In this document: positions 17,741 through 63,648 of the stretch, in pieces
Layout of the letters: every line of letters begins with the position of its first letter
Position numbering within the stretch: position 1 is the stretch's first letter
Assembly (NCBI GenBank): GCA_965214775.1
Contig: OZ243974.1
Coordinates: 832,001-896,000, forward strand
Direction of reading: 5' to 3'
Origin: Nitrosopumilus sp.
GTDB taxonomy: Archaea > Thermoproteota > Nitrososphaeria > Nitrososphaerales > Nitrosopumilaceae
DNA length: 64,000 bases
Position numbers and translations under genes: made by a program
The notes under the pieces: model-generated
Database searches by the model: none
What the model saw: the letters and a program-made list of their open reading frames with translations, nothing else
What the model was told of the DNA's origin: nothing

Positions 17741-17860
17741 GTGGCAATATCAGAATGTTGTGCAGTCTTCCCAGAAGTAATCCGGACATTGAATACCTGG
17801 GCGTGCAAAGAATCGTGGCAATATCAGAATGTTGTGCAGTCTTCCCAGAAGTAATCCGGA
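17741..17860. repeat. 46-bp direct repeat around a 28-bp insert (period 74)
   Basis: gtggcaatatcagaatgttgtgcagtcttcccagaagtaatccgga at 17741 and 17815. Confidence 0.92.
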
Positions 17861-17957
17861 AAACGGCTCCGGATTTGAAGCAGACCAAGTTATGACGCCT
17901 GCCGATTCACTTGCCACCATCTGCACAGTCATGAATAGCGTACTTCTGGGAAGACTG
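17837..17957. mobile_element. 121-bp ISH3-related MITE
   Basis: cagtcttcccagaagta...tacttctgggaagactg. Confidence 0.88.
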
Positions 17958-18081
17958 TATATGCACATACACACATGTACTGTATGATTTGTTCATCCTG
18001 CCTTTGCATAATAATAAAATGGTACATCCTGTAATTGTACCATCCCTTTATCCTTTTATTCCCATCAGTTTATTTAATCTC

Positions 18082-18915
18082 ATGAAAGTCGCAGTTGTTC
18101 AGTTCAAGGCATCAACCAAAAAGGAAGTCAACTTAGAAAAAATCACATCATACATTTCAAAGGCTGCAGCAAATAACGCAACACTGTGTACGTTTCCGGA
18201 ATTTATGATGTTTTATACAAGTTCAAAACAAACACCAAGGCAACTTGCGGATTTGTCCGAAAAAATCAACGGAAATTTCGTCTCAGGCATAGCACAAGCA
18301 GCAAAAGAAAGCAGGATTCAGGTAGTCGGTTCCTTTTATGAAAAAAGCAGAAAGAAAGACAGGGTCTATGATACCTCCTTTGTAATTGACAAAGACGGAA
18401 AGGTGGTTTCCACGTATAGGAAAATCCATCTTTACGATGCCTTGGGGTTTAAAGAGTCAGATAAGATGGCGCCAGGCTCAAGGATTGCAAAACCCGTGAA
18501 AACTTCTGTAGGAAAAATAGGAATGATGATTTGCTATGATTTGCGATTTCCTGAAATGTCCCGCCTGCTTGCAGTAGCAGGATCTGAAGTTCTGGTTGCC
18601 CCATCAGCATGGGTAAAAGGAAGAATGAAAGAAGAGCACTGGCTAACAATTAACAAGACACGTGCAATTGAAAATGGGTGTTATGTCGTTGCGCCTGATC
18701 AGGTGGGAAACATCTACTGCGGAAGAAGCGTAGTAGTTGATCCTTATGGAAAAATTTTACTTGATATGAAAAAAAAGCAGGGAATTGGCTATGCTGTCAT
18801 CGATTTGAAAAAACTCAAAGACGTCAGAAAAGTCTTGCCTCTCTTAAAGAACAGAAGAACTGACGTTTATCCTACTGCTGCTTTGAAGGCTTGGACTTTC
18901 TACTATCACAGTTAA
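18082..18915 (+). CDS. carbon-nitrogen hydrolase (nitrilase/Nit family)
   Basis: FPE, YRKIHL, ICYDLRFPE, RAIEN. Confidence 0.93.
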   Translation: MKVAVVQFKASTKKEVNLEKITSYISKAAANNATLCTFPEFMMFYTSSKQTPRQLADLSEKINGNFVSGIAQAAKESRIQVVGSFYEKSRKKDRVYDTSFVIDKDGKVVSTYRKIHLYDALGFKESDKMAPGSRIAKPVKTSVGKIGMMICYDLRFPEMSRLLAVAGSEVLVAPSAWVKGRMKEEHWLTINKTRAIENGCYVVAPDQVGNIYCGRSVVVDPYGKILLDMKKKQGIGYAVIDLKKLKDVRKVLPLLKNRRTDVYPTAALKAWTFYYHS

Positions 18916-19351
18916 AGTTTGAGCACTGCCTTGTCCATTTTTGCTTTCTTGAGTATCTGAAAATTATCATTGGCCATTTGCATACTTTGCACGGACTTTT
19001 TGTTGCGCGAAGCTTTGCCTTTTGCAGCAAGGGTGATGATGCCTTACATCCCCCATAATAATTTGAGCATCCAATGAATCTTTTTCTTGTAGTTCTTGAT
19101 CGTATAACCATTAGTTCCCCCAGCTTGCAAACAGGACACGGAACCAGGCCTTTCTTGGGAGAATTTGTTCCCAAGATAATGTATTTTTTTTCTTTTGGGG
19201 ACCAGGACAAGAAGCCGTTGCTGTCAAGATACTGCACAATCTCTTTTTTGAAACTGGCAGTTCCGGCCTTGGTTGTTCTGACAACATGTCGTCTTTTGGC
19301 TGATCTTTTTACCTGAATTGTTGCTTGCGATCTGGATTTTCTCACTGACAT
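18872..19351 (-). CDS. topoisomerase-type C4 zinc-ribbon protein
   Basis: CPVCK...RFIGCSNY...C; basic N-terminus. Confidence 0.8.
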   Translation of the reverse strand: MSVRKSRSQATIQVKRSAKRRHVVRTTKAGTASFKKEIVQYLDSNGFLSWSPKEKKYIILGTNSPKKGLVPCPVCKLGELMVIRSRTTRKRFIGCSNYYGGCKASSPLLQKAKLRATKSPCKVCKWPMIIFRYSRKQKWTRQCSNFNCDSRKSKPSKQQ

Positions 19352-19407
19352 TTTCTATGACGACTTTGCTAAAACGATTTTTATATGGACTTGGGTCAAC
19401 GACTTTC

Positions 19408-20562
19408 ATGGAAAAGGTTTGCGTTCTTGGTGCCGGAAGCACCAAATATGGCAAATTAGCCGACAGTATTGCCGATATCACCACACAGGCCTCAGTTGCA
19501 GCCATAGAAAGCGCAGGAATTGAGCCCAAGGAGATTGGGGCATCATACATCTCAAACGTATTTGGAGTAGCAGACAAACAAGTCCACATTGGTCCTGTCC
19601 TAATGAGCAGGCTGGGAATTCCCGACAAGCCGTCATTGACAATCGAATCTGCATGCGGAAGCGGCTCAGTTTCGTTCAGGGAAGCCTATGCAAACATTGC
19701 AGCAGGGTTTTATGATTGCCTTATTGCAACCGGTGTTGAAAAAGTGACTCATACTGGAACAGAATGGACTACGACATACTTTGCATATTGCTCGGACTTT
19801 TTCTACGAGGCCCAAGCAGGTGCGTCTTTTCCAGGATTGTTTGCATCAATGGCAAGGGCGTATCTCACAGAATTTGATGCGACAGAAGAAGACTTTGCCA
19901 AAGTCGCAGTAAAGAACCATGACAATGGGGCACTTAATCCAAAGGCCCACATGCAAAAGAAAATCACGGTTGATGATGTAATGAGTTCTGCAGTTGTTGC
20001 AAGTCCGTTGAAGCTTTACGACTGCTGTCCGTTCTCTGATGGAGCAAGCTCTGTTGTTTTATGTTCAGAAAAATTTGCAAAAGAACACGGAGGCGATTAT
20101 GTTGAAGTAATTGGTTCGGGCAGAGGCGGTTCACCTGCCGCATTACAGGGACGTGATCACATGACAACCATTCCAAGCACAAAGATTGCATCAAAAGCCG
20201 CATACAAGATGGCCGGAGTAGAGCCAAAAGATATTGACTTTGCAGAAGTTCACGACTGCTTTACAATTGCAGAGGTTGTTGACACTGAAGATCTAGGATT
20301 CTTTGAAAAGGGGCAGGGCGTTCAAGCCGTCAGAGAAGAAAGAACAAAGTTAAACTCGGATATTTCAATTAATCCTTCAGGCGGCCTTAAATCAAAGGGA
20401 CATCCAATTGGCGCAACCGGGATTGGCCAGGTAGTTGAAATGTATGATCAGCTAACCGGCAGTGCCGGCCAAAGATCGGTCAAGGGTGCGGAACTTGGCT
20501 TAACCCATAACTTTGGCGCAACCGGCGCAAGTTGTGCCGTTCATATTTTCCAGAGCGTCTAA
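19408..20562 (+). CDS. archaeal thiolase (acetyl-CoA C-acetyltransferase)
   Basis: ESACGSG, EVHDCFT, NPSGGLKSKGHPIGATG. Confidence 0.93.
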   Translation: MEKVCVLGAGSTKYGKLADSIADITTQASVAAIESAGIEPKEIGASYISNVFGVADKQVHIGPVLMSRLGIPDKPSLTIESACGSGSVSFREAYANIAAGFYDCLIATGVEKVTHTGTEWTTTYFAYCSDFFYEAQAGASFPGLFASMARAYLTEFDATEEDFAKVAVKNHDNGALNPKAHMQKKITVDDVMSSAVVASPLKLYDCCPFSDGASSVVLCSEKFAKEHGGDYVEVIGSGRGGSPAALQGRDHMTTIPSTKIASKAAYKMAGVEPKDIDFAEVHDCFTIAEVVDTEDLGFFEKGQGVQAVREERTKLNSDISINPSGGLKSKGHPIGATGIGQVVEMYDQLTGSAGQRSVKGAELGLTHNFGATGASCAVHIFQSV

Positions 20563-20563
20563 A

Positions 20564-20929
20564 ATGTCCATCGAAGAGCAAGTCATTGAAAATGCAAAGC
20601 AAGGAAGGCTTCTAACCCACAGATGTACTGATTGTGGACATCTTCATCTCTCGACTGCATACTATTGTAGGGAATGCGGAAGCAAGGGATTTGAGGATGT
20701 TTTGGTTGACGGAAAAGGCACCGTGGCTACCTATACCATCATTACTGTGGCCCCTGCTGGGTTTGAGAAATACACCCCATATGCCTTTGTGGTCCTGAAA
20801 TTAGACGGTGCTGACTTGAGAATATCTGGGTTTATGGAGGGAATCACCACTCCCGATGACCTGCCGGTTGGAACCCCCGCCAAAATCACTGGTTTTGACG
20901 AACGCGGCATTTTGATTCAAAAACAATAA
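20564..20929 (+). CDS. DUF35 Zn-ribbon/OB-fold thiolase partner
   Basis: CTDCG...CRECGS, GTVATYT; adjacent to the thiolase. Confidence 0.9.
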   Translation: MSIEEQVIENAKQGRLLTHRCTDCGHLHLSTAYYCRECGSKGFEDVLVDGKGTVATYTIITVAPAGFEKYTPYAFVVLKLDGADLRISGFMEGITTPDDLPVGTPAKITGFDERGILIQKQ

Positions 20930-20998
20930 AAATTTTTGTCCGAATTATTAAAAAAATTAAGATCGATTCTTAATTATTTTGTGTTTGCTGTATCAATC

Positions 20999-21160
20999 AT
21001 GTCTGTTGAAGTTACATGTGGCAAATGCGGTGAAAAGATCACCAGCATGAAAATGTTAAAGTCGCTCAAAGATGCGATGAAACCTTACAGCGGAAAATGC
21101 CCGTCGTGTGGACAAAAACTTTCTACGTCCGAGTTTTCTCTTGACGTTCAGGAAAGATGA
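20999..21160 (+). CDS. small zinc-ribbon protein
   Basis: CGKCG...CPSCG. Confidence 0.75.
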   Translation: MSVEVTCGKCGEKITSMKMLKSLKDAMKPYSGKCPSCGQKLSTSEFSLDVQER

Positions 21161-21326
21161 CGTCCCAAAATGATCACAGCGTGATCGATTTTCAATCCTT
21201 GAAAATTTTTTGAATATTTTTGATCCTGTCAGGAGAAAACTTTGTTCAATCAACATTCCAATGATCAAAAACTAAAAAAATGATCTGGTCACAAGTCTTA
21301 TTTACCTCCTTTTTTTAGAATCAGTT

Positions 21327-23486
21327 ATGAAAATGAGCAACGATGAGTTAGAACTGAATCTGGAGGATGATCTAGATGATGATTTTGACGAGGAGGAGGA
21401 TGATGATGACGAGGACTCGCCAAAAAGAAGCGGAGTATTACAATCCACATCAAAACGTGTAAGAATGATCTTCTCGGTCATGGCAAGCCCCAATAGAATT
21501 GACATCCTAAGAATTCTAAATTCCAAAGGCCCTTTGACTTATTCTGAGCTAAAATCACTGGCCGGTTTCAAATCTAAAAAAGAGAGTGGAAAATTTGCAT
21601 ACCACTTGAGAAAATTACTGAGACAGTCGCTTGTTGCATTAAACAAGTCCGAAAGGCGTTACACAATTACAAATCTTGGAAAACTTGTCATAAGTTTGGC
21701 AAGACAAATTGAGGAACGCTCCATCATTGAAAGTGGAAAGATGTATGTCAGAACATCACATGAATCCATCGAGGAATTCAATTCCCATAAAATTATTCAA
21801 TCGTTGGTTCGTGAAGGAAGTCTTCCGCTTGAACTAGCACAGAAAATCACTGAAGAGGTTGAAAATAGAATCTACAAATACCAAACAACCTATCTTACGG
21901 GCTCGTTAATCCGCGAAATGGTCAACTCTGTTCTTCTTGAGCACGGTCATGAGGAATACAGGAACAAACTTGCACGCCTGGGCATGCCTGCATTTGATGT
22001 CCAGGAAATGCTTTCGAACCTAGATGACGTAGATAACGGTACTGAAGGCCTTTTATTCCATACGGGACAAAGAGTCTTTGCAGAACGTTTACTGACCAAC
22101 ATTCTTCCAAAGGATGTTGCAGATTTCCACCTTTCTGGCGACCTGCACATAACGAATCCCGGAATCTGGTCCATGATACCTGATACGGTTTTTGTCAATA
22201 TCAAAGAACTCTTGGATAACGGAGTTGATCTTGGAGGAAAATATCTTGATGTTTCGAGACTTCCTGCATCAAAACGACTGGATGAAATCGCAAATTCATT
22301 ATCAATGATAATTTCGCTATTATCAAAAGAAGCCTCTCAGGAAATCGTTCTAGATGGAATGCCACAACTCTTTAGCAAACATTCAAAATCACTAGGAGAA
22401 CTTGAACAAAAGCTTACCAATGCATTTGCAATTGCATCCACTACTTCAAAGTATAACAAGACAAGCACGAACGTTTCAATCAGATTACAGCTAGGGACTG
22501 ACGCAAAAATCATCACTTCAATAATCAACGCATACAAAAACTACACAAAGTTCACACCGCAACCAAAAATTGGTTTGATAATCGATGTTGGAAAAGGAAA
22601 GATTACCGATGTTTCAGCAGATGCTGCAGAAATTATTTCCATTGGTGGAAAAATAATGTTTGCAAAAGGACAGACATCCAGCTATGGCATTACCAATGGT
22701 TCAGCTAAAAGTTCCGGTCCATTGACGATCATACTGCAGTCTGTCTCGATTAATTTGCCACGACTTGCGTTTGAGTCAAACAAGGATGAAACCTACTTTA
22801 GAGCAAGGCTTGCTTTGTTGATGAAACCGGCATTGTCTTCCATGGCATTAAGAAAGAAAGACATTTCTGATCTTACAAGAAGAGGTCTAAATCCAATTCT
22901 TGCAAAAAATACCCAATACATGCAAAAAAGCTCAATATCCCTTGTGATCAATCTAGTCGGACTAAAGGAGGCAGTGTTTAACATACTTGGATTCCAAGAA
23001 AACAGAGCAGGCAAGGGAATCCTGCACAAGGTGATAGAGACTGCAGTCGATGTTGCGGCCAAAAAAGGCAAGGAATTAGGCGATTCTGTGGCTATTTGCG
23101 TGTCTGAGACTGAGGGTTCTGAGAGGTTTACGACGCTAGACGGGGAAAAATATGGCAAAAATTCCGTTCTAATTTCAGAGGAAGGGGATTCCTATTCACA
23201 GGGCATCGTAATTAGCGCCTCAAAAGTAGGCGATTACACTGCAAAAAGTGCGCCTATCTCCGAATGCAACAAACTCGCCAAATTGCTCAACGGGGGCTTG
23301 CTTGTAAATCTGGACATTGACAAAAATGCCAAAGTTGCAGATATTAAAAAGTCTATTGAAAAGACTGCCAAACTTACTGCCTCCTTTAGGCCGGTCAAAG
23401 AGATCGCAATTTGTGGCGAATGTGGCTTCAAAGACAGGCCGTTTAAGGACAAATGTCCAAAGTGCAAGTCGCCATACATTGTCTGA
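21327..23486 (+). CDS. ArsR-type HTH + ATP-cone + degenerate class III RNR (NrdD)-like fusion
   Basis: N-terminal wHTH (NRIDILRIL...FAYHLRKL), ATP-cone (VRTS...EEFNSHKI), SINLPRLA, C-terminal CxxC...CPxC. Confidence 0.8.
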   Translation: MKMSNDELELNLEDDLDDDFDEEEDDDDEDSPKRSGVLQSTSKRVRMIFSVMASPNRIDILRILNSKGPLTYSELKSLAGFKSKKESGKFAYHLRKLLRQSLVALNKSERRYTITNLGKLVISLARQIEERSIIESGKMYVRTSHESIEEFNSHKIIQSLVREGSLPLELAQKITEEVENRIYKYQTTYLTGSLIREMVNSVLLEHGHEEYRNKLARLGMPAFDVQEMLSNLDDVDNGTEGLLFHTGQRVFAERLLTNILPKDVADFHLSGDLHITNPGIWSMIPDTVFVNIKELLDNGVDLGGKYLDVSRLPASKRLDEIANSLSMIISLLSKEASQEIVLDGMPQLFSKHSKSLGELEQKLTNAFAIASTTSKYNKTSTNVSIRLQLGTDAKIITSIINAYKNYTKFTPQPKIGLIIDVGKGKITDVSADAAEIISIGGKIMFAKGQTSSYGITNGSAKSSGPLTIILQSVSINLPRLAFESNKDETYFRARLALLMKPALSSMALRKKDISDLTRRGLNPILAKNTQYMQKSSISLVINLVGLKEAVFNILGFQENRAGKGILHKVIETAVDVAAKKGKELGDSVAICVSETEGSERFTTLDGEKYGKNSVLISEEGDSYSQGIVISASKVGDYTAKSAPISECNKLAKLLNGGLLVNLDIDKNAKVADIKKSIEKTAKLTASFRPVKEIAICGECGFKDRPFKDKCPKCKSPYIV

Positions 23487-23688
23487 AAAGCGTTAATCAG
23501 AAACTAACTACGATCATTTTTCAAAATTTTTTGTTCCATTTCAGATCGACGATGATCGCAGTATTGCGCGCAGTTGGCCGGTATGAAGTCCATAGTAACG
23601 GTGTCAATATTTTTGAACCGAGTTTGAAGAAAAAATTTCAGAATGAGTTATAACTACATTGATCATAACCCCTGCGGGGAGGTTATAA

Positions 23689-26600
23689 TTGGATAATTCA
23701 CAAATAGAAAATACGATCAGTGAGATCCGTAAGCGCAGCGGCGCAGTCACGGTTTTCAACCAAGATAAGATTTCAAATGCCATTTATAGGGCACTGGCAG
23801 CCACCTCTAAAGCCGATCGTGGCCTAGCCGATCAACTGGCAGGCAAGGTAGTTGACAAGCTCGTAGAACAGGGATTTACCAGTTCTAGAACACCCACAGT
23901 CGAGGACATTCAGGACATTGTGGAATCAACGCTGATCGACAGCGGAAATAGCGATATTGCCAAGGCATACATCGTCTACAGGCATGAGAGAAGAAAACTA
24001 AGAGAAGAGAAGATGAAGGTCTTGAATCTAAAGTCGTTGGATCCCGTATCTAAGAAATTTGATTTGAACTGCCTCAGGGTACTTGCATCAAGATACCTGT
24101 TCAGAAACGGCAAAAACGAGATTGTTGAATCGCCAACTCAGATGTTTGAAAGGGTCGCAATCCTGGTAGGCATAGGTGATCTGTTGCATGATTCGCGAAT
24201 CTTTGACAAGTCGGCAAGCTCAAAACAGGATGCAGATGAAGCAAAGTCCTATCTTGAAAAACTGGATGCCTTTGACTACAAGTTCAAAATTGGGAAGCAC
24301 TACCTCAACAAGTGGCATTTCAGATCCCTGATCAACCACTATGTCACTCTAGCAGACAAAGATCAAATGAAAGTCAGCTTCAAAGATCTTCTAACACTGA
24401 TTGCAGAAAAGAAACTGGATGATTGTGCAGATAAAATCTCAGAATACTTTGAGCTGATGGTTTCACAGGACTTCCTGCCAAACTCTCCAACGATGATGAA
24501 TGCGGGCGGAAGATTAGGACAACTGTCAGCATGTTTCGTTCTCGGAATGGAAGACGGAATGGAACAGATCATGAAATCCACGTCAGACGCCGCATTAATC
24601 TTCAAGTCCGGCGGCGGCGTCGGAATCAACTATTCTGATCTTCGCGAAGAAGGCGACATTGTTGCGTCAACTTCAGGCGTGGCATCCGGTCCCGTATCAT
24701 TCATGAACATCATCAATACGGTCACCGAGGTAGTCAAGCAGGGAGGAAAACGGCGTGGTGCAAACATGGGAATCATCGAAGCATGGCATCCTGATGTTGA
24801 GAAGTTCATCACAAACAAGACCGAACCGGGAGTCCTGGAGAACTTTAATGTAAGCGTTGGAATCTGGGAGGACTTTTGGCATTCGCTTGTTAATACGTCT
24901 GATGGGAATTACATTCTACGAAGCCCGCGCGACAAAAAGCCTGTCAAGGAAATCAATTCACACCAATTAATTGATTTGATTGCACTATCAGCATGGAAGA
25001 GCGCAGAACCTGGCCTGATCTTCTTTGATCAGATCAACAAATACAACGTCTTTGCAAAGGCAAGACAGGCGCCATTAAGGGCTACAAACCCCTGCGTTAC
25101 TGCAGACACCTGGGTTGCAACGGTTCACGGTCCAAGGATGGTGCAAGATATCATTGACAAGCCGGCTACAATGTTTCTTGGCGGCAGGACATGGGGTACG
25201 GAGGGATTCTTTTGTACAGGAACAAAGCAGGTTTACTCCCTGAAAACAAGGGAGGGATTTGAGCTAAGACTGACTGCAGACCACAAGGTGCTTACAGTAA
25301 AAGAGCAGGCAAGGTACGGACAGGCCACGCAGTGGAAAAAGGCAAGCCAGCTGTCAAAAGATGACAGGATAATCCTTGATGATTGTAGATTCTACGAGTG
25401 GGATGGCAAGCATGACAAACCAGAAGGCTATGTGATCGGTCTTTTGGTCGGGGACGGCAGTCACATCAAAAGGAGCAAAGTTGCCCTGTCGTCTTCACTG
25501 GGTGGTGAGAGTAGTGGCAACGTCAATGTCAGCGAGCAGGTGATGCAGCGTGTAAATAATGACATGTCATACAGCTCTGACTTTGCAGGATGGATCAAGG
25601 TGGCAGGACGTAAAGAATACGCGTTGCAGCTCCCATCAATAAACAGACTTGCAGAATCATTGGGCCTGTGTCGTTCCCACAAAACCATAACACCGCAAAT
25701 CGAAAAGGCATCATCTGAATTCTACAGGGGATTTTTGCAGGGACTCTTTGATGCAGACGGAACAATAGTTGGAAATCAGGCCAAAGGCGTGTCAGTCAGA
25801 CTGGCACAAAGCGATCTCAGGATACTCCAAGCAACCCAGAGAATGCTGCAAAGGCTGGGCATCATTTCCAAAATCCATCAAAATAAAAGGCCAGAACATG
25901 ACACGATAATGCTTCCTGACGGCAAGGGCAAAATCGGACCACGCCACACAAAGGCACGACATGAACTGGCCATCTCAGGCCAGAACGTTCTCAGATTCTC
26001 ACAAGTGATAGGTTTTGCAGACACTGACAAGATGCACAGACTGGATTATGCGTTATCATCATGCCGCCAGAACAGCCTCAAAAAAGAGAGGTTCACTGCA
26101 ACCGTTCTGGAATTGGTTCCAGAGGGAACAGAACCGGTCTATGACGTAATGGTTCCAGGCGCAAACGCCTTTGACGCAAACGGCGTTGTAGCCCATAATT
26201 GTGGCGAACAGAGCCTCTACCCGTACGAATCATGCAATCTTGGCTCAATCAACTTGGCCAACCTTGTCAAAAGGCAGGCTGACGGAACCTATGAGTTTGA
26301 TTGGCAGAGATACGAAGAGACGATCAGAAAAACAACCCGTTTCCTGGATAACATCATTGACGTAAACCACTATCCTGTAAATGAGATCAACGTGGCTTCA
26401 AAGGAATCAAGAAGAATAGGATTGGGCGTTATGGGTGTGGCCGATCTGCTATACAGGCTTCGAATCCCGTACAACTCCAAAGAGGGATACGAGCTCCAGT
26501 CAAAGCTGTCCGAGGCGCTGACTTACTACTCCATGGAAGAAAGCGTCGCTCTGGCAAAAACCAGGGGCGAATTCCCGCTCTGTTCAAAGACCGAATATCC

Positions 26601-27447: not shown

Positions 27448-27498
27448 ATATCAACAGAATCACAACTTTTTTTTACTTTCCCTTCTTTCTCGTTCTTC

Positions 27499-28617: not shown

Positions 28618-28619
28618 GC

Positions 28620-29288: not shown

Positions 29289-29310
29289 GCGGCAAATTTT
29301 GCACTCTGTT

Positions 29311-29734: not shown

Positions 29735-29764
29735 TTTATAAGACGATTCTCGATTTTTTGCTTC

Positions 29765-34614: not shown

Positions 34615-35481
34615 ATGGCCCAGCAGCTCTTCAGAAGCCTCATTTTCGTTCCCGGAAACAACCCAAGATTTCTTGAAAAGGCAAAGAGTCTCCAGGCAGA
34701 TATAGTATGCCTTGATTTGGAGGACTCTGTTCCAGACAATGAAAAAGCTGCTGCCAGAAGGCTGATCAGAGACGCACTAAAGGAAAGGGGATCGTTTGAG
34801 TCCTCAATATTTGTGAGAACAAACTCCCCGCTTTCGGGAAAAATTCCATCCGATTTGAAGGAGATTGTCCAGAAAGGAATTGACGGGATTGTAATTCCAA
34901 AGGTGAACGGCACAAACGAACTCGAAGAAATTGAAAAGATACTATCGCCTCTCGAAAAATCCAGAAAAATAAAACCGATTCAACTCATTCCCTCAATCGA
35001 ATCGGCCAAGGGAGTGGTCAACACATACAGCATTGCATCACACAGCAGACGGGTAAGCGCCGTGGTCTTTGGAGTGTTTGATCTCTTAAATGATATCGGT
35101 GTTGAGTACACCAAGAATTCCGAGGGAGAGAAACATTCCCGTTCAAAGATTCCGGTTGATGCTCGTGCTGCCGGAGTTGTAGCCATTGATGCGATATGGC
35201 AGGATCTTAAAGATACAAAGGGGTTTGAAAGAGATTGCAGGTTAGGAAAAAGTCTGGGATATGGCGGAAAAAGCATTATTCATCCAGACCAAATTCCCAT
35301 TGCACACAAGCTGTTCCATCCAAGTAAAAGTCAGATTTCTTGGGCCCAAAAGGTTTGCACAGAGTATGAAAAATCAGCCAAAAAAGGCAGGGGGGCTACA
35401 ACCGTTCACGGAAAGATGGTTGACGAGGTACACTACAAACAGGCCAAGGCACTCTTGAAATCAACTGGCCAACAAGGTTGA
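34615..35481 (+). CDS. CitE/HpcH-family CoA-ester lyase
   Basis: RSLIFVPG, DLEDSV, IPKV, IES, GKSIIHP. Confidence 0.9.
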   Translation: MAQQLFRSLIFVPGNNPRFLEKAKSLQADIVCLDLEDSVPDNEKAAARRLIRDALKERGSFESSIFVRTNSPLSGKIPSDLKEIVQKGIDGIVIPKVNGTNELEEIEKILSPLEKSRKIKPIQLIPSIESAKGVVNTYSIASHSRRVSAVVFGVFDLLNDIGVEYTKNSEGEKHSRSKIPVDARAAGVVAIDAIWQDLKDTKGFERDCRLGKSLGYGGKSIIHPDQIPIAHKLFHPSKSQISWAQKVCTEYEKSAKKGRGATTVHGKMVDEVHYKQAKALLKSTGQQG

Positions 35482-35561
35482 TTCAGCAAGACACTTTACG
35501 TCAGGGCAGAGTGCGCGTTCTTATCTTGGAATCAACTGGCCAACAAGGTTGATTCAGCAAG
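35454..35561. CRISPR. orphan repeat-spacer-repeat unit (37-bp palindromic repeat, 34-bp spacer); CRISPR nature uncertain
   Basis: cttg(a/g)aatcaactggccaacaaggttgattcagcaag at 35454 and 35525; no cas genes in window. Confidence 0.4.
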
Positions 35562-35672
35562 AGCGCTCATCGTATGGCTGCCCTAGAGTTTTGAATGAGG
35601 CTTTAAGGAGTCCTCACAATATGCCATCATTTTTCCGTATTTCAGAACGTGCCAAAGCCTGAAATATTCTAG

Positions 35673-52553: not shown

Positions 52554-53694
52554 TAGTCAACATATAAAAAAAAGAACAATTTTGACAACTATTTTTGATC
52601 CAAACATTAAGATCAGGCAAGGAATACGCATATGCATGGACAGACAGAGAAAGGAATTCGTAGCATCAGGAAGCAAATTCCTGCCAAATACGTCACGCTC
52701 CTACCTGCACAAGGCATACAAAAAGGAGACAGACAAGAGAAAGCGCGACAGGCTGCTTGCATACATGCAGCGCAAGGACGACCTCGGTGTGGAACAGATA
52801 GCAAAGAACCTCGACCGGGCACATTCCACCATATCCAAGTGGCTCATCCGCGCACAGGACGAGGGAATACGTGCAAGGCACGAGCGGCCAGGCAGGGGAC
52901 GCAAGCACAAGCTGAGTGAGTCGCAGCTGAAACAGCTTGCGGCGGATCTCAAGTCAGGATCCGAGGAGTGCGGTTTTGAGAGCAGCCTGTGGGACTCGGG
53001 CCTGATGAGACGGCACATCAAAAAGAAGTTCGGCATAGAATACAGCAAGAGCGGCACGCGGCTGCTGGCACGCGAGCTTGGGTTCTCATGGAGGAAGCCG
53101 AGGCCAAAGAACCCAAAGGCCGTCTCAAAACAAAAGCAGAACGAGTTCAAGGAGGCATCCCAAGAGCTGATACGGGAAAAGGAGGCGCAAGGGTATACGG
53201 TACTGGCAGAAGACGAGTCATCCATACAAAAGACCTCAAACAGCCCCAAACACGGGTGGCTCAGGCGCGGCATGAGCGTCACGGCGCCCTTGACGCTGTC
53301 ACGGCAGCGCCGGTACATGTTCGGCGTGCTGGCAGTTAACATATTCTACTATATGTTCTATGACAAGACCAACACCGACAGCTTTTGCGACTTTTTGGAA
53401 AAGGTGCACGAAAAGTACGGAAAGGTGTTGATATTCCTGGATAATGCGTCATACCACAAGTCTGTCGGCGTAAGAGAGATGCTGGAAAAGTACAAGGGCG
53501 AGATAATACTGAAGTACCTGCCGCCGCACACGCCGGAGCTCAATCCTGTAGAGATACAGTGGAGGGAGATAAAGCGGAGGCTGTCTGCCAAGATGTTTGA
53601 TACGCTTGATGAGATGGAGCAGTCCGTGCGGAAGATGTTTGCCAGTGGAGAGATCCTACCGGTAAAGATGTTCCGATATTTGATGGGCTGACTA
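52554..53694 (+). mobile_element. IS630-family element; transposase 52636-53691
   Basis: LGFSWRKPRP, DES, DNASYH, LPPHTPELNPVE; ends tagtca/tgacta. Confidence 0.92.
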
Positions 53695-53825
53695 CTGCAG
53701 CAGCAGCAGCAGCAACAACTGTCGTGTTCCATACTGTCGGGTCTTGTGTGGCAGTATGTCAAACCCCCCATGCACGAATTAACTACTGCAGCAGCAACAA
53801 CTGTCGTGTTCCATACTGTCGGGTC

Positions 53826-53988
53826 TAGTACGCCTTGCAAAGGCGTGAGTGCTTTGCTTGCCTAGGAATTTGTCCCTTGATGTTGCGAATTCTGCCTGTT
53901 TTCCCATGCATGTGCGATGGTTTGCCTGATCTTAATGTTTGGATCAAAAGCAGTTGTCAAAATTGTTCGTTTTTTTATGAATTAACTA
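53826..53988. mobile_element. IS630-derived MITE/remnant
   Basis: ~53921-53988 is an inverted copy of the IS630 left end (52554-52620). Confidence 0.7.
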
Positions 53989-54082
53989 TGGCCTCATACC
54001 AACAGTCTAAGGAAGCCTAGGTGGAATTAGGCGACAACCCCCCCTGCTGCCATAAAGTCTATTATGTCAAGATCCACTCTGA

Positions 54083-55734: not shown

Positions 55735-55852
55735 GTAACAGGATAGCCCCTGCCTAGGCAGCAATCAGGCATGAATCTGCCTGCAGTTGCGATTTTCATG
55801 CCTGCCCGGTAATGGACGTGACTCCAACTCTAGGCAGGGGCTATCCTGTTAC
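55735..55852. mobile_element. 118-bp element with 23-bp perfect TIR
   Basis: gtaacaggatagcccctgcctag...ctaggcaggggctatcctgttac; interior resembles ~55362-55428; similar end near 61330. Confidence 0.7.
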
Positions 55853-55932
55853 AAAAAATCTTATGCAAGTAACATCAAAAATTTCTTGCAAATTTGTTTC
55901 TAAATATAGAAAACAAGCAGTGATGAATTGCT

Positions 55933-57084: not shown

Positions 57085-57229
57085 CAGTGATGAATTGCTG
57101 AAAACATTAAAGAGCAAAAACAGACCCGGTCAATTTACTGCTTGTGCCTGCGATGCGCTCTTGATTAACGAGATGAGGGCTTTTTCCATAGCAACAGACT
57201 GGTGGTGCCATGAGAAACACCCGCAAAAA

Positions 57230-57769
57230 TCATTTTTGCTGTTTTTTCCAAGAATCATTTTTTGACTCCTGCCTTAGCAACTGCCGTTTCCGTCTTATTC
57301 CCCAGCGGTATCCTGCGATACCCCCGTCTTTTTTTACAACGCGATGGCATGGTATTGCAACAGCCAGTATGTTGGAACCGCACGCATTAGCTACTGCCCT
57401 GATAGAATTGGGAGATCCAATTCCTTTTGCAATGTCTGTGTAGCTTGAGGTAGAGCCCCTAGGAATTGCTTGGATGGTTTTCCAAACCTTTTCTTGAAAC
57501 TCAGTTCCCTGAATGTCCAAGGGAAGACTAAATTTGGAGGCAGGATTTTCAACAAACTGATTAGTTGCCTTTAATTCAGAATTCATATTTTTCGATTCAG
57601 TCAGATCTCGTTTGGGAAATGAATTTTTGAGTTCTTCAACCAGAATTTCTTTGCTGTCTCCAAGTAAAATGGAGCATATTCCGGATCTGCTTTTTGCAAC
57701 CAGGATTTTTCCATAGATACACGTGCCTATTACATAGGAAATTGGATGGTTTTGCCGGTCTTTAGACAA
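57230..57769 (-). CDS. ogt: methylated-DNA-protein-cysteine methyltransferase (Ada C-terminal-like)
   Basis: GTEFQEKVW, RAVANAC, IPCHRV. Confidence 0.93.
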   Translation of the reverse strand: MSKDRQNHPISYVIGTCIYGKILVAKSRSGICSILLGDSKEILVEELKNSFPKRDLTESKNMNSELKATNQFVENPASKFSLPLDIQGTEFQEKVWKTIQAIPRGSTSSYTDIAKGIGSPNSIRAVANACGSNILAVAIPCHRVVKKDGGIAGYRWGIRRKRQLLRQESKNDSWKKQQK

Positions 57770-57814
57770 TTCTGATTAAAAACATCACTGTCATCTTTGA
57801 TTTTAAGCAAAACT

Positions 57815-57836
57815 CACCATGGAGAGTACCATGGTG
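57815..57836. promoter_or_regulatory. palindrome between divergent genes (possible operator)
   Basis: caccatgg-agagta-ccatggtg. Confidence 0.4.
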
Positions 57837-57863
57837 CGCAAGGCATTTTTTAATATCTGACGT

Positions 57864-58208
57864 ATGGAAACTGTGCAAAAAATAATTTTAGAAGTAATCA
57901 ATGAAAGAAAAGTTTGGATGATAGTCTCCACAAGAGAAGAAGACTGTGAGGAAAACGAGCTTGAAATCATAAGGCCAATGATAGAAAAGCTGAATGAACA
58001 ATGGTATGAAAAGGGGAATATGGTCTGGATCGGAAGGCTAGACGATCAAAAGACAAGTATTGCAGTTTTTGAGGCAACAGAAGAAAAAGCAAACAATCTC
58101 TTTGAGCAATATGCAGCAGTTTGTGGAAAAGCATTAAACGTAAAACTCCATCAATGGGATGCATTTCCGTTGTTTTCTGTTTTTGAAAGGCTGCAAGGGA
58201 GACTGTAA
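57864..58208 (+). CDS. hypothetical protein (possibly YCII-like)
   Basis: ...GNMVWIG...SIAVFEATEEKA...LHQW pattern. Confidence 0.55.
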   Translation: METVQKIILEVINERKVWMIVSTREEDCEENELEIIRPMIEKLNEQWYEKGNMVWIGRLDDQKTSIAVFEATEEKANNLFEQYAAVCGKALNVKLHQWDAFPLFSVFERLQGRL

Positions 58209-58473
58209 TTTTTAAAAGAAATCATGGTGCCTGCAATGGTATGCTGCCGCAGGAATTTTTGTAGGATATGTGATACGCGAGGCGGCCATAAAGAACGGCC
58301 AGACCCCGCTGATTGCATTCGGCGATAAAAAGGCCACAGATGCGATCAGGAAAAGCGACCCGAAATGGGTGGAGAGGGAGACATCGATGACTAGGCAAAA
58401 TAATTTCGGTATAATACAGAACTTGGTACTCGATAATGCTAATTTTATATATGCTATGCCATTCAACTGCCTT

Positions 58474-59886
58474 ATGAATAGGCGTGTTAGCGTTCTCTTT
58501 ACAATTGCAGCAGTAGCTGTAATGGGCGCAACCTTATTCGGAAGCACATACACACAAACCCAGATTGCTGGACAATCACTTGATATCAACGAAATGGATG
58601 TCGATGTAATTGAGAAAATCCATCAAATGGGCGGTTTACAACTTGTAATGCCTCAAGCATTCGCAGAAACTGACTGTGGTGTACTGGAAAATTCTGGACG
58701 CAACGTAGTTGAGTTCAATTTGGATGGTTACAGTGTTGAGCTCCCAATCATGGGCGGTAAGACATTCAACGCCATGACTTTTGATGGACAGGTCCCAGGA
58801 CCGACACTAAGAGTCACACAAGGTGACGTTGTAAAAATGACCCTCACAATTCCAGACTGGGAAGTTACTGGACACGGTAACGACATGCACGCATCACAAA
58901 CGTCATCAGCAAGCTTTGAATCAGTTAATCCTGGTGAAACAAGTCAGTACTGTTACATCGCCGAATCAGCTGGTGTGTTCAAATACCATTGTTCTGGTGT
59001 CAAACTAATTGGCATGGACCAACACGTACTTTCCGGCATGTACGGAATTGCAATCGTTGATCCTGCAAATGGATACAAGAAACTCATGGTAGAGAAGACC
59101 AGCGGTAGCGGTGAACTTGACAGAAAATTCTATGATGCAGATGCATTAGAGTTCCAACTCCAATACAGCCAATTGTATCTGACACCTGAGGGCAACTATG
59201 ATGCAGTAGCAATGCACAAGCATCAAAACACTGCAACAGTTGTCAACGGAATGCAATTCGGTTACGTGCCAAACATGGCTCATAACTTACTCGTCAAGGG
59301 CGATGTAAACAAGAACATCTTTGTTGCACAACCATGGAATGGAATCGAACACAAGCAGTACCAGTCACAACTCTTATTTGTTGAAACTGATCAGCACGTA
59401 AGACTCTTTATTGAAAACCAGGGCAACGAACCAGTATTCTTCCACATTGTAGGAGAAATCCTGGATAGAGTTGTTCAAGGCAACAGAGTACAATCTGCAG
59501 CAACTGAGACATGGTTACTCGGCGGCTCACAAAACATGATTGTAGACGTGGTATTTGATGAACCAGGTACGTATGCAGCAATAAACCATGATTATGCGGC
59601 AATTTACAGTGGTGCAGCTACGGTCTTTGTAGCAGGTGATCCATTCGGCCTGAACCCGGTTCTAGTCGAGAAAGGAGTCATTCCGGCACCGGTGGCATCA
59701 TATGCATACGCATTAGGCAACCCAAGCAGCGCTGTCCCGCCAATGGGAATGAACAGCATTGCTCATCCTGCAATCAACATTCATGGTCTGATGACTGATG
59801 AAGTAGCTTCTGAAATGCAAGCAAGTGGCGATTATATCGCATTATGGGAAGTAATTCCCGTAGTGGCAGAAATCCTTACTTCTTGA
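58474..59886 (+). CDS. nirK: copper-containing nitrite reductase, AOA type
   Basis: VPGPTLRV, HGNDMH, KYHC...DQHVLSGM, FHIVGE, NHD. Confidence 0.92.
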   Translation: MNRRVSVLFTIAAVAVMGATLFGSTYTQTQIAGQSLDINEMDVDVIEKIHQMGGLQLVMPQAFAETDCGVLENSGRNVVEFNLDGYSVELPIMGGKTFNAMTFDGQVPGPTLRVTQGDVVKMTLTIPDWEVTGHGNDMHASQTSSASFESVNPGETSQYCYIAESAGVFKYHCSGVKLIGMDQHVLSGMYGIAIVDPANGYKKLMVEKTSGSGELDRKFYDADALEFQLQYSQLYLTPEGNYDAVAMHKHQNTATVVNGMQFGYVPNMAHNLLVKGDVNKNIFVAQPWNGIEHKQYQSQLLFVETDQHVRLFIENQGNEPVFFHIVGEILDRVVQGNRVQSAATETWLLGGSQNMIVDVVFDEPGTYAAINHDYAAIYSGAATVFVAGDPFGLNPVLVEKGVIPAPVASYAYALGNPSSAVPPMGMNSIAHPAINIHGLMTDEVASEMQASGDYIALWEVIPVVAEILTS

Positions 59887-60272
59887 TCACTAACATCTTT
59901 TTCTTTTTATTTTTCTTTTGGAACACTCTTCCAGGCGTGATCCGCAATGATCAAGCCCATGGCTGGATCCTGCCTTGTAAAATGGCCGCATCGCGCATGC
60001 CCCATGGGCCTTGCATGGATCCTGTACGGCATGAGGTTGCCGTAGCTATGCCAGTCCTCCGTCAAGGGAGGCATGGCATGGCCTGTATTCTTTCCCATAT
60101 ATCCGCGCATGATGTGAGGACATTCGCCGCCGGATCATCCTTGCCTTGCCGGTCACGGACTTATGGCGCATGCCCGGTAGCTGTCGGGCCAGGCGGCTTT
60201 TGGCGCCCCGGTTCCGGAAAAAAAGAGGCATGCCGCAAGCCGATATCAATTGTTATATGACGAAGGCGTGCA

Positions 60273-60863
60273 GTGACGGGGGAGAATATGAACGGCAAAA
60301 CAACATTCGTAATGCCTCCCTCGGTACCGGCGCTGCTGGCTCCTGTGGGAATGACAGATGCGGCGGCACAAGAAGCCCCGGGAGGCATTGAAGACGACAC
60401 GCAAAAAATCACGGTAAACGAACTAGAAACCGACACCGATGAGCAAATTCACGATATCCCAGATGGTTTTGAATCAGGAGAGTTCAGAAAGCTATTTTCT
60501 GACAGCGATGGAGGCAGTGTTGGAACGACGCCAAGTGTGATGCCAGACACATTACGTGGCAAAATCACACCTGTACATCATGGCCCATGGCCTGTCCGGT
60601 GCGGTGGCAGTTTCTTGGACCCGCACATGCCAGACCCGACGCCGACTACCTGTGATGCGGGAATCACACCAAGCGGCACCCGGCAGATCCTGAGAAATGA
60701 CGGATATCATATGACTGCCGAATATGCATCCTGGATTGGCGCAGCATCGCAACCGTATGATTCCACAAAAATCGTTCCAAGCAGCAACTGTGGGGGGCTG
60801 TGCGATGCCGGGGCATTCCGTGATCATGCCGGAATAAACAACGATTTTTCACACACCGTATAA
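60273..60863 (+). CDS. hypothetical, possibly degenerate exported protein
   Basis: Signal-like N-terminus; no family recognised. Confidence 0.3.
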   Translation: MTGENMNGKTTFVMPPSVPALLAPVGMTDAAAQEAPGGIEDDTQKITVNELETDTDEQIHDIPDGFESGEFRKLFSDSDGGSVGTTPSVMPDTLRGKITPVHHGPWPVRCGGSFLDPHMPDPTPTTCDAGITPSGTRQILRNDGYHMTAEYASWIGAASQPYDSTKIVPSSNCGGLCDAGAFRDHAGINNDFSHTV

Positions 60864-61348
60864 AACGAAGAGCCAAATCCAGAGACATTGTCGTATGTAT
60901 GGCCGTACTCTCACCGGGGAGTTTGCGCATATCGGTGGCATGTCACTTGGCCCCACTTTTTTCTAATTCTGGGGGCTACGCTGGGCTTTCTTTTTGGAGC
61001 ATCTTTTGGCATGATGATACTCAATCTCTTAATTTATGACCATCTTGGAGGGCCGTGCATATGGCCGCTCTCCGATGCAGTCGGCATCGGCGGGATAGAC
61101 ATCTCAACATTGGAATGGAGCGAGCGCCTGCAATGCTATCTTAATCCCTACAGGGAACCCTGGTGGAATTAGACCAGCAGGCAGTTGTCGCACGGAGTGA
61201 CCGCGGAGTTGGGAAGTTGTCCGGAGATGACGCATTGGCATCTGGCATTGGCCTCACAGCCCGATGCCTGACGCAAGACATGACATCGGACTGCAATCGA
61301 TCAGATCCTGCCTGTCTGACTTGTGATGGGATGGCCCCTGCCTAGGTT

Positions 61349-61469
61349 CAGTCTTCCCAAAAGTACCGCATCAAATCATCCCAGGCTTAAAACAATTCAG
61401 ATGAGGATGCCTGCAGATCCGCATGTCACCTACTGCACTGCCGTGAGTCGGTTACTTTTGGGAAGACTG
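61349..61469. mobile_element. 121-bp ISH3-related MITE
   Basis: cagtcttcccaaaagta...tacttttgggaagactg. Confidence 0.85.
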
Positions 61470-61516
61470 AGGATACGGATAAGATTTCGTACAGCGTCTA
61501 CTGACTGTTGAAACCG

Positions 61517-61538
61517 GATCTGCCAATTTAGGCAGATC
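61517..61538. terminator. hairpin at the 3' end of the 61537-62025 gene
   Basis: gatctgcc-aattta-ggcagatc. Confidence 0.35.
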
Positions 61539-62025
61539 ATGTACCTTGCTGTGGTTTATTGTCTTTTATTGATATGGCCAGACCGTTTGGAACACTATAG
61601 AACGGACTACCGTTTTGATCATAGGCATTATCAAATCTAATTATTTCATCGATGGTTAGTTTAACTTTTACTTCTTGCCCTGTTCGTAAAATTCTATAGA
61701 TGTTCCAAGGTTCGTGATTCTTATCTATGTGTACCTTGTATTTATTGTGAGATTTTTGTTTTTCTACATCATTAAGTAATTCTAGGCTAGGGGTTCCTCG
61801 TAAATGAGGTGGAGCATAAACAGACCATTTCGGCAAAGTTATGTCAAAACTCACTTTTTTAGGATTGTTAGGATCTCGCATTATTTTTGCCAGAAAAATT
61901 CTACCTTTGACTCGCACACCATCATCTAGCTCATACTCATTCCAGTCCTCCTCTTCAACTTTGAACTCCATTTCTTCATAATCACTTGGCAATGGGGAAG
62001 GGTTGTCAGGATTAGACTGCGACAT
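61537..62025 (-). CDS. hypothetical protein with internally duplicated E-x-W-N-x-Y domain
   Basis: EEDWNEYELDDGVRVK... and HEPWNIYRILRTGQEVK... Confidence 0.75.
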   Translation of the reverse strand: MSQSNPDNPSPLPSDYEEMEFKVEEEDWNEYELDDGVRVKGRIFLAKIMRDPNNPKKVSFDITLPKWSVYAPPHLRGTPSLELLNDVEKQKSHNKYKVHIDKNHEPWNIYRILRTGQEVKVKLTIDEIIRFDNAYDQNGSPFYSVPNGLAISIKDNKPQQGT

Positions 62026-62035
62026 TAAAAATAAC

Positions 62036-62236
62036 CTAAGTAGTATTAATCAAGTTTAGCTTTAAAATGTTTCCGTCGCTTGTAGACGCAGATGTATCTG
62101 ATTCTGTAACTATCGATACTGTTGAGGATTCTATTTGCGTAGTTTCTTCAGAAGTTTGTTTTTGAGTTTTGTCTATTATGTGCGTTTTTACATCATACGT
62201 CTGATCATTTGATCTACTTACGCTAATTTTTTGCAT
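62036..62236 (-). CDS. small S/T-rich hypothetical protein
   Basis: 66-aa ORF, co-oriented just upstream of the previous gene. Confidence 0.45.
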   Translation of the reverse strand: MQKISVSRSNDQTYDVKTHIIDKTQKQTSEETTQIESSTVSIVTESDTSASTSDGNILKLNLINTT

Positions 62237-62285
62237 GTATAATGTACATGAAAATTTAATTAAAAACCTATCGGTCTATCTGGGG

Positions 62286-62376
62286 GTAAGATCTTGCCCC
62301 TCCCCTGAGATACGGCGTGCTAGGCGTGATCATGAAGGCTCCGACCGGCAGTGCCGCCTGAGGGGTAAACTCATAC
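62286..62376. mobile_element. 91-bp IS66-related MITE
   Basis: gtaaga...ctcatac; 9-bp duplication tatctgggg; inverted homolog of 3033-3123. Confidence 0.88.
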
Positions 62377-62782
62377 TATCTGGGGTGTATGAGTTTACCC
62401 CTCAGGCGACGTTTCCAGTCAGGGTCTTGGCGACCATTTCACTCACGTTACACCCTTGGGCGCGCCAGTTCATCGTGCATGTCATCAGCACGGTGAACAT
62501 CTCCATGCCCTCCATGGTACGGAGTCCCTGGAATATCTTGCGCGCAATTACAGACGGCCTCAGCATGCGCTCGGCCAGGTTGTTGGTGGGCTCCATGCCC
62601 GGATACAGCACGAACGTGTACAGGTATTCTGAAGCGTTCCCAAGCTTTGTGGCAAATCTCGCGCAACCTGCCTCCCTGAATGCCACGGCCAGCGCGCGTG
62701 TCTCGACTACCAACATGTCGTGCTGCTGCTGCCTGGTATCGTCCTCCTTCTCCTTCTCCTCCGGTGGTGGTGGCCCAGCCCC

Positions 62783-62890
62783 TTGGCAAAGAGGAACTTT
62801 TTCTTGAGTGTATCATACGGTAATGTTACACCAATCCCCCCGTCTGCAAGGGGGTTGGCAAAGAGGAACTTTTTCTTGAGTGTATCATAC
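62783..62890. repeat. 36-bp direct repeat around a 36-bp insert (period 72)
   Basis: ttggcaaagaggaactttttcttgagtgtatcatac at 62783 and 62855. Confidence 0.93.
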
Positions 62891-63086
62891 AGCGCGTGGG
62901 CCTGCCGGGAAGTCTTGCCGGCATCCTTGGCCTCCCGGAGTATGTGTGCCCAGCACCACTGCCTAGTCTTGAATACGACGTATACACCGTACCCGTCGAC
63001 TGTAACTGGTTTGTCATAATACGGAAAGTTCGTGTCAACTATGATCCTGCCCCTGCTAGGTGCGACCACCGTGTGGACGCCGGTTA

Positions 63087-63165
63087 TAGCAACGGGCAGA
63101 AGTCTTTGAGTCAAAATAGGTCACAACTACACGTAAAAAACCTCAATTATTTCTGCTCGTTGCTA
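63087..63165. mobile_element. 79-bp MITE, TAG...CTA ends, TA duplication
   Basis: tagcaacgggcagaa...ttctgctcgttgcta; removal restores GSITG of the transposase. Confidence 0.85.
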
Positions 63166-63394
63166 TATGCTGCCGTCCTTGTCCTTGCCTACTACCACCC
63201 ATATGCGGGCCGTCCTGCCGTTGTATGGCATGGCAGTCTCGTCAATATACAGATAATCAGAATCTCGGATGGCCTGCTTGATGCCATCTACGCTGGGCTT
63301 TATTGCCTTGGTGCAGGCCCTCAGGCACTGCAGCACACCTGCCTCTGAGACATCCATGTTCAGGATTTCTGAGCACATTGTGGCCGTGGCCTGT

Positions 63395-63648
63395 ATGGAG
63401 GCAGGTGTCATGTGCATTGAAGTTATCATCATGCATCCGAATCGGGAAAGTCGATCATTCAGAACAGATGGAGGCAGGTGTCATGTGCATTGAAGTTATC
63501 ATCATGCATCCGAATCGGGAAAGTCGATCATTCAGAACAGATGGAGGCAGGTGTCATGTGCATTGAAGTTATCATCATGCATCCGAATCGGGAAAGTCGA
63601 TCATTCAGAACAGATGGAGGCAGGTGTCATGTGCATTGAAGTTATCAT
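63395..63648. repeat. 73-bp tandem x3.5 (35-bp IS66 segment + 38-bp insert)
   Basis: Units start at 63395, 63468, 63541, 63614. Confidence 0.95.

Follow-up and report, generated by a model that had tools for sequence, protein, structure and literature searches.

The window analysed here is a 64,000-nt stretch of the genome of a Nitrosopumilus sp. (positions 832001-896000 of OZ243974.1, a single contig of 2,833,656 bp). It contains four main sites, hereafter ectopic units, each built as a copy of a target sequence, a short insert, and a second copy of the target. Off-target integration of spacers by the enzymes of CRISPR adaptation is known from over-expression and test-tube work, and its natural frequency and cost are the question that we address through these units. 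The units and the mobile elements that they touch, namely a miniature inverted-repeat transposable element (MITE) and a degraded insertion sequence (IS), are the following.

17741-17860, no strand assigned: ectopic unit 1, target copies at 17741-17786 and 17815-17860, insert at 17787-17814 (28 nt).
17837-17957, no strand assigned: MITE copy adjoining unit 1, about 121 nt with inverted ends, matching many dispersed copies at 72-95% identity.
35453-35562, no strand assigned: ectopic unit 2, target copies at 35453-35491 and 35524-35562, insert at 35492-35523 (32 nt).
62783-62890, no strand assigned: ectopic unit 3, target copies at 62783-62818 and 62855-62890, insert at 62819-62854 (36 nt).
63395-63648, no strand assigned: ectopic unit 4, amplified, with a 35-nt target at 63395, 63468, 63541 and 63614 and the same 38-nt insert at 63430, 63503 and 63576.
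62420-63700 (approximate limits), minus strand: degraded IS66-family element hosting units 3 and 4, in which 62707-63114 (minus strand) matches DDE_Tnp_IS66.

All four sites had been picked out in a first-pass annotation made from the letters alone, and all four are borne out, with unit 2 measuring 39 + 32 nt where 37 + 34 nt had been given. The two 46-nt target copies of unit 1 are 100% identical and lie at a spacing (period) of 74 nt. This target comprises 22 nt of unique DNA and the first 24 nt of the MITE, whose copy starts at 17837, in agreement with the junction proposed in that annotation; because the target spans the MITE end, the integration must be later than the MITE insertion. The unit 1 insert is identical (100%) to genome positions 1062473-1062500, where the flanks differ, and the 10 nt upstream of this source agree with the last 10 nt of the apparent target at 7 of 10 positions, which points to a probable initial split of 36 + 38. 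Unit 2 has 39-nt copies that are 97% identical (one mismatch) with a period of 71, and its target is a palindromic stretch that includes the stop codon of an HpcH/HpaI-type aldolase gene (34615-35481, plus strand; Pfam match).

The target copies of unit 3 (36 nt, 100% identical, period 72) are located inside a degraded IS66 transposase gene, and the DDE_Tnp_IS66 match upholds the earlier view that the sequence duplicated at 62783 and 63395 is IS66 coding sequence. Unit 4 comprises 3.5 copies of a 73-nt period, 100% identical according to Tandem Repeats Finder; because all its inserts are identical, it would stem from a single integration event whose new repeats later underwent unequal recombination or slippage. 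Other copies of the same IS family hold two more units, at genome positions 301682 and 1929695. Beside unit 4, a 102-aa open frame (63601-63909, minus strand) shows a weak match to ParE toxin (E = 2.7e-4) that falls below the Pfam cut-off. The targets in the window are ordinary gene, IS or MITE sequence, unlike the true CRISPR repeats of this genome, and the units do not have the makeup of functional CRISPR arrays, as each holds two target copies or, in unit 4, four copies with one identical insert.

Comparison with paralogous sequences shows directly what was added. Across the genome-wide set described below, 14 units have a paralogous empty site that consists of a single target copy with contiguous flanks, and because these empty sites lack both the insert and the second repeat, the insert is new DNA rather than the product of local duplication. 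Within the window, an intact IS66 paralogue (L006:1253-2710, encoding a 485-aa IS66 transposase) carries one copy of the unit 3 target and a single copy of the unit 4 target, the window being longer by 72 nt at the former and by 219 nt (3 x 73) at the latter. For units 1 and 2, no empty allele was seen among the contigs examined.

We checked the assembly against Logan contigs from sequencing runs of two independent studies, some of which may derive from the source strain and in which rare alleles are invisible. Identical to the window, these contigs either stop at the edges of a repeat or extend across the first target copy together with the insert. For unit 1, a contig from run X5 covers 17000-17811, hence the first copy and most of the insert; at unit 2, contigs from both X1 and X5 terminate at 35488 and resume at 35533, the pattern expected when a repeat exceeds the assembler word. 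No contig in this set bridges any unit in empty form, and none spans a unit fully, so that the verification by reads advised in the first-pass annotation is answered in part: the contigs of both studies are consistent with the units, short of a complete span. Tandem duplication by replication slippage, or an artefact of assembly, might be suspected from the unit at 63395, which is a perfect tandem array, and from the general tendency of repeats to confuse assemblers. However, it would leave unexplained the empty sites and the inserts drawn from distant loci, as well as the behaviour of the contigs from two other studies and the similar units in independently assembled relatives, and we regard it as scarcely credible.

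The window units belong to a large class. We scanned the genome for direct repeats of at least 30 nt and at least 90% identity separated by an insert of at least 10 nt, with no shorter period and both junctions unique, and with the true arrays excluded. Isolated units passing this filter numbered 46 at periods of 70-76, as against 8 at all other periods between 40 and 108; the 46 include 11 with a period of 72, 16 with 73 and 12 with 74. The distribution of periods, which the first-pass annotation had proposed to plot, thus has a sharp peak at 72-74 nt and is not flat. A further 61 filtered units at periods of 135-159, mostly 156, are presumably repeats inside large genes; once multiples of 3 are set aside, no offsets other than 70-74 are prominent. 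The 46 include one (genome position 2288313) that is probably internal to a MITE; the amplified unit at 63395, which fails the filter but belongs to the class, is additional. Chance cannot yield exact direct repeats of 30-46 nt placed 70 nt apart, and the useful null is other processes that make repeats.

The lengths of the two components are also characteristic. The duplicated target measures 36 nt in 15 units, 37 in 10, 35 in 5 and 38 in 4 (35-38 nt in 34 of 46), with outliers of 30-32 nt in 3 units and 43-46 nt in 5 that leave the total length unchanged. Insert lengths range from 26 to 43 nt, with 26 of 46 falling at 36-38 nt and 33 at 35-39 nt. Units occur at 4-11 per 400 kb, or about one per 60 kb. 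The repeats are 100% identical in 40 of 46 units, and a genome-wide search for old, decayed units found few; together, these two observations make the activity look recent.

A fifth, looser case noted at 53691-53826 proved to be of another kind.

53706-53829, no strand assigned: 42-nt direct repeat with copies at 53706-53747 and 53788-53829, period 82, not of the ectopic class.

The repeat is real, but the whole repeat-insert-repeat structure recurs in about 8 copies of a mobile element across the genome, at periods of 79-82, and is excluded as an independent event by the requirement for unique junctions. Separately, we observed a multi-copy element containing an internal 34-nt repeat (3 mismatches) around 41 nt, with a period of 75, at genome positions 113943, 228016, 794568, 1521943, 1531675, 1590841 and others; this may be an ectopic unit of long standing that multiplied together with the element carrying it, or else a coding repeat of unrelated origin.

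At many sites, the open frame becomes longer when the unit is removed in silico, growing from 130 to 1064 codons at genome position 1281865, for instance, and from 114 to 551 at 1266906. Other units are in frame inside long open frames, such as those of a 615-aa Mrr/Ig-domain protein and an 833-aa PMT/LamG protein; the period is divisible by 3 in 11 of 46 units, which is no enrichment for in-frame insertion. At genome positions 1266834-1267014 (L007:2834-3014), three 36-nt target copies, the first with a one-base deletion, enclose two different spacers, one of them a perfect copy of part of a 12-copy IS element. This site lies within a 562-aa gene, and the surrounding glycosyltransferase/sulfotransferase/AbiE island (1264-1284 kb) holds 5-6 units.

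The spacing of the ectopic units equals that of the CRISPR arrays of the same genome. There are two such arrays, with repeats of 36 and 37 nt, units of 71-75 nt and a total of 78 true spacers. The larger array consists of 68 repeats of 37 nt with spacers of 33-37 nt, mostly 34-36, and stands beside a type I-B operon comprising a gene for a 591-aa protein (no Pfam match), cas7, cas5, cas3, cas6b, cas1, cas2 and cas4. The adaptation module is intact, with a cas1 of 336 aa free of internal stops, a cas2 of 120 aa and a cas4 of 196 aa, and what we take to be the catalytic Glu, His and Asp residues of Cas1 are aligned in its product. The smaller, orphan array (genome 1977219-1978062; L002) has 12 repeats of 36 nt, spacers of 36-39 nt and no cas genes nearby; its neighbours encode a HerA/TrwB-like ATPase, a type IV prepilin peptidase-like protein and an MreB-like protein, and the array is possibly part of an integrated mobile element. 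The ectopic peak therefore coincides with repeat plus spacer in both arrays (36 + 36-39 nt and 37 + 33-37 nt), the comparison that had been recommended together with a check for cas1, which in turn yielded the single intact cas1-cas2-cas4 module.

We conclude that the ectopic units are probably marks left by a CRISPR adaptation integrase that inserted spacers off target; the likeliest candidate is the resident type I-B Cas1-Cas2 (with Cas4). The first-pass annotation had suggested an integrase measuring about 36 bp, either Cas1-Cas2 or a casposase-like enzyme. The former option is supported by the period peak, its match to the arrays, the intact module and the unrelatedness of the inserts; the latter is not needed, as the only Cas1 homologue in the genome is the CRISPR one, and neither a second Cas1 nor a casposase-like Cas1 nor a remnant of a Cas4-Cas1 fusion was detected in it. 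Casposons share with the proposed process a Cas1-family integrase, a staggered cut and a duplicated target, but they are kilobase-sized, with terminal inverted repeats and a polymerase gene, and their integration produces short target duplications of 14-15 bp. With inserts of 26-43 nt and no casposase-like Cas1 in the genome, we rejected a casposon as the source. Casposons do occur in this archaeal group, according to one report (PMC6563490).

The inserts themselves are mutually unrelated and are not MITE ends. Compared with each other and with the 78 true spacers, the 47 inserts show no similarity beyond chance matches of 8-10 nt, and they have neither common ends nor inverted termini. A MITE-like small transposable element with unusually long target-site duplications of about 36 bp might be considered, in view of the very high MITE and IS load: 21% of the genome consists of 16-mers present at least three times, many units lie beside MITE copies, and half of the units are in such multi-copy DNA or within 100 nt of it. 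But the inserts share nothing, and therefore do not form a transposable element family, and 13 of them are internal pieces of unrelated genes or IS elements; we consider this explanation highly improbable, and insertion of a MITE or IS with target-site duplication was rejected because no conserved element with defined ends exists among the inserts. The bias towards mobile DNA that the first-pass annotation described is present but modest, with 17 of 46 targets in multi-copy DNA compared with 27% of random sites, and its claim that the units lie mostly in such DNA goes too far.

For thirteen of 46 inserts, a second locus in the genome aligns end to end at 94-100% identity while its flanks are unrelated; six of these alignments, including that of 17787-17814, are at 100%. 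These thirteen are precise copies of other genomic segments; one further insert matches the genome over 31 of 36 nt, and two inserts derive from the same 12-copy IS family. Among the 78 true spacers, in contrast, there is no self-match longer than 19 nt. The presence of self-derived inserts at ectopic sites and their absence from the true spacers fit a scenario in which self-spacers would be purged by autoimmunity from real arrays only. The unique insert sources, 10 in number, cluster around the CRISPR-cas locus, with 5 at most 200 kb away from it (p = 0.009) and 2 at most 15 kb (p about 0.01), a pattern noticed post hoc. The remaining three window inserts (35492, 62819 and 63430) have no self-match. 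Those of units 2 and 3 match nothing in the genome, and none of the three has an exact match in viral_contigs, nor has the unit 3 insert one in metagenome_contigs; the contig sets were scanned for exact matches, which diverged sources would escape.

The targets resemble CRISPR repeats at their borders. Of 92 borders, 19 open the duplicated segment with GT, 13 with CT and 11 with GC, against expectations of 4.8, 5.3 and 5.5, so that these three starts account for 43 borders where 15.6 are expected. GT, CT and GC are exactly the three dinucleotides that open the four true repeat ends. Border positions 4-7 lean the same way, with G or T at position 4 and A at positions 6 and 7, and the match of the 7-nt border to the repeat ends is strong relative to 20,000 random sites (p = 3.7e-10). 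The targets are also more prone to form hairpins than random 36-mers (p = 9e-5), and the true repeats are palindromic.

We then compared related genomes. A search of 31 genomes, G000 among them, detected Cas1 in 13, and six relatives were sampled over 400 kb each, a small sample of genomes that are related and hence not independent. The many hits at period 75 in the relatives are within-gene repeats of what we take to be a DUF285-like kind. The most informative relative, the Cas1-bearing G009, possesses a 36-nt-repeat array with a Cas4-Cas1 fusion and Cas2 (units of 72-75) as well as a 30-nt-repeat array (units of 65-69). Its sample contains about 7 isolated ectopic units, all at 71-75 and none at 64-69. 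One locus (G009:C1:238780-239210; L029-L030) is built from five 36-nt pseudo-repeats, all identical but different from both CRISPR repeats of G009, with four different spacers of 36-38 nt between them, and is followed by a sixth, overlapping event whose target starts inside the last pseudo-repeat. This series looks like an array being born. A second Cas1-bearing relative, G017, has 2-3 units, and the three relatives in which no Cas1 was found (G002, G018 and G007) have 0-1 candidates each. Two of these three, G018 and G007, retain short CRISPR arrays whose repeats, 36-37 nt long, belong to the two types found in the present genome (L094, G018:C1:252741-253030; L122, G007:C1:16241-16540), which implies that they once had an integrase. 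With units in two of three Cas1-bearing relatives and 0-1 candidates in each Cas1-lacking one, this small comparison counts in favour of spacer integration.

Several observations weigh against assigning the units to the resident integrase, and they fall into two groups. The first concerns which Cas1-Cas2 was responsible. Ectopic periods average 72.89 +/- 1.24 (n=46). The cas-adjacent array departs from this value (72.03, n=64; p=2.7e-4), whereas the orphan 36-nt array is compatible with it (73.45, n=11; p=0.17), and the repeat type of the orphan array matches the array that in G009 goes with the Cas4-Cas1 fusion, a gene not found in the present genome. The same chemistry could thus have been performed by another Cas1-Cas2 module, the builder of the orphan array, since lost or residing on a mobile element or virus outside the assembly. 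Insert length likewise agrees with the orphan rather than the cas-adjacent array, the modal target is 36 nt and not 37, the ectopic units of G009 follow only its 36-nt array, and the HerA/TrwB-like ATPase near the orphan array is suggestive of a mobile element. Yet the genome holds neither a second Cas1 nor a trace of the fusion, although the activity looks recent, and at an off-target site, where no internal repeat motifs set the exact cut, differences of 1-2 nt are weak evidence. We therefore judge such a second module unlikely, though not negligibly so.

The second group of observations concerns whether a spacer integrase was involved at all. The split between target and insert varies, with targets of 30-46 nt, while their sum stays constant (r = -0.92, a value that arises partly from selection by period), and this is not the fixed ruler of the textbook. 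Similarity of the whole target to the true repeats is not above random (p = 0.09 and 0.79). No protospacer-adjacent motif (PAM) is shared by the 13 insert sources, so that the common PAM that the first-pass annotation had proposed to look for did not emerge; TTN stands on one side or the other of 6 of the 13 (p = 0.009), a weak enrichment noticed post hoc. Finally, the Cas1-bearing relative G026 has no units in its 400-kb sample, two Cas1-lacking relatives each have one candidate at period 72, and the comparison is small, with 3 Cas1-bearing and 3 Cas1-lacking genomes at 400 kb each.

Some of these results would suit an undescribed, Cas-independent process that adds about 72-73 nt by combining a short DNA copy with a compensating local duplication, for example template-switching repair or replication with a fixed product length: it would accommodate the constant sum with its varying split, the many inserts copied from the genome itself, the absence of a clear PAM and the single candidates in Cas1-lacking relatives. 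But the constant equals the CRISPR unit length of this genome, the modal split equals its repeat and spacer lengths, the borders are similar to the ends of CRISPR repeats, an array-like series has been built up in G009 by successive hits at a single site, and the density is far lower in the Cas1-lacking samples, two of which come from genomes that keep CRISPR arrays. We know of no repair pathway that measures 73 nt, and we consider such a process quite improbable. Under off-target spacer integration, the sum would instead be fixed at birth (36 + 37), and base changes, conversion between copies or microhomology at the edges may have shifted the apparent boundary afterwards, as suggested by a few cases: three sources at which 7/10, 4/7 (genome 305641) and 4/8 bases match, and a 27-nt case at genome position 1266843 that is a 36-nt repeat with a one-base deletion.

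With the resident type I-B integrase as the agent, we infer the following order of chemical steps. The complex would capture a DNA piece of about 37 bp, often from the cell's own chromosome or an IS element. In a target that is not CRISPR DNA, the two 3' ends of this piece would attack the two strands at positions about 36 bp from each other. The sites used would be those that begin like the ends of CRISPR repeats (GT, CT or GC, with A following at positions 6-7) and are prone to hairpin formation. Filling of the two single-stranded gaps would then duplicate 36 bp, for an overall addition of about 73 nt. The later history of a unit may include a second hit, as at genome positions 1266834-1267014, amplification by recombination between the repeats, as at 63395-63648 in the window, loss by the same route, and drift.

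Elsewhere in the window there is a perfect tandem of 9.2 copies of an 18-nt unit at 9675-9839, inside a long open frame (9063-10868), along with two further tandems: a 54-nt unit repeated 4.8 times at 342-602, and a 21-nt unit repeated 3.2 times at 2451-2517.

Off-target integration by Cas1-Cas2 is already known, and this genome is probably an unusually rich natural case of it. Nivala, Shipman and Church, in 2018 (Nat Microbiol 3:310), are said to have observed non-canonical integration in E. coli over-producing type I-E Cas1-Cas2, giving rise to 'neo-CRISPR' loci. Those loci reportedly share with the ectopic units a spacer-sized insert and a repeat-length duplication of ordinary DNA, outside an array and at sites that are partly array-like. 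They differ in arising from over-production of an E. coli type I-E system, whereas here about 46 natural units are found in one genome with a type I-B system, where genes are disrupted, some inserts are self-derived, one unit is amplified and another holds two spacers. Isolated small arrays away from cas genes have reportedly been proposed, by Shmakov et al. in 2020 (CRISPR J 3:535), to start by integration into repeat-like sequence; in those cases, the targets are reported to resemble the cognate repeat, whereas here only the borders do, and most units have a single spacer.

The neo-CRISPR work is cited for off-target Cas1-Cas2 integration in four publications (PMC7054753, PMC6698737, PMC9456107, 10.1101/148544). 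The last of these refers only to 'circumstantial evidence' for natural off-target events in two other species and treats as unclear whether such loci commonly arise. In vitro, Cas1-Cas2 of Pyrococcus furiosus is described as integrating into plasmids at paired opposite-strand sites one repeat length apart, with a 30-bp ruler, a base preference of G, then C at the attacked positions, and no leader requirement seen (PMC6698737). The paired sites one repeat length apart, the border preference and the partial resemblance to repeat borders recur in our units; theirs is a plasmid reaction in the test tube with 30 bp, whereas ours are chromosomal footprints with a 36-37-bp duplication. A host factor that limits off-target integration has likewise been described in vitro (PMC13769266). 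The 'ectopic spacer acquisition' of Streptococcus thermophilus and S. mutans, in which a spacer is inserted away from the leader-proximal repeat, is different in that it takes place inside the array at genuine repeats (PMC7999890, PMC5338259, PMC8265633), whereas the units here lie in unrelated genomic DNA. A limited literature search turned up no single genome described as carrying dozens of such units.

On balance, we lean towards a broader reading, whose four parts we hold jointly and with only modest confidence: that in this archaeal group, misdirected spacer integration is a steady endogenous source of insertions rather than a rare accident; that it breaks or lengthens accessory genes; that it records the unselected sampling of the integrase, largely from the DNA of the cell itself, with IS elements and the vicinity of the CRISPR locus among the sources; and that it seeds new arrays, as in the five-repeat series of G009. 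If this is true, the perfect 36-nt flanking repeats would allow precise loss of a unit, so that the mutations would be reversible. The roughly 46 natural events, with their empty sites, sources and border preferences, provide a ready data set for the target rules of a type I-B integrase and for what such an integrase captures when self-targeting goes unpunished. They would also be relevant to the mutational load that comes with maintaining an adaptation module, and to the origin of new CRISPR arrays.

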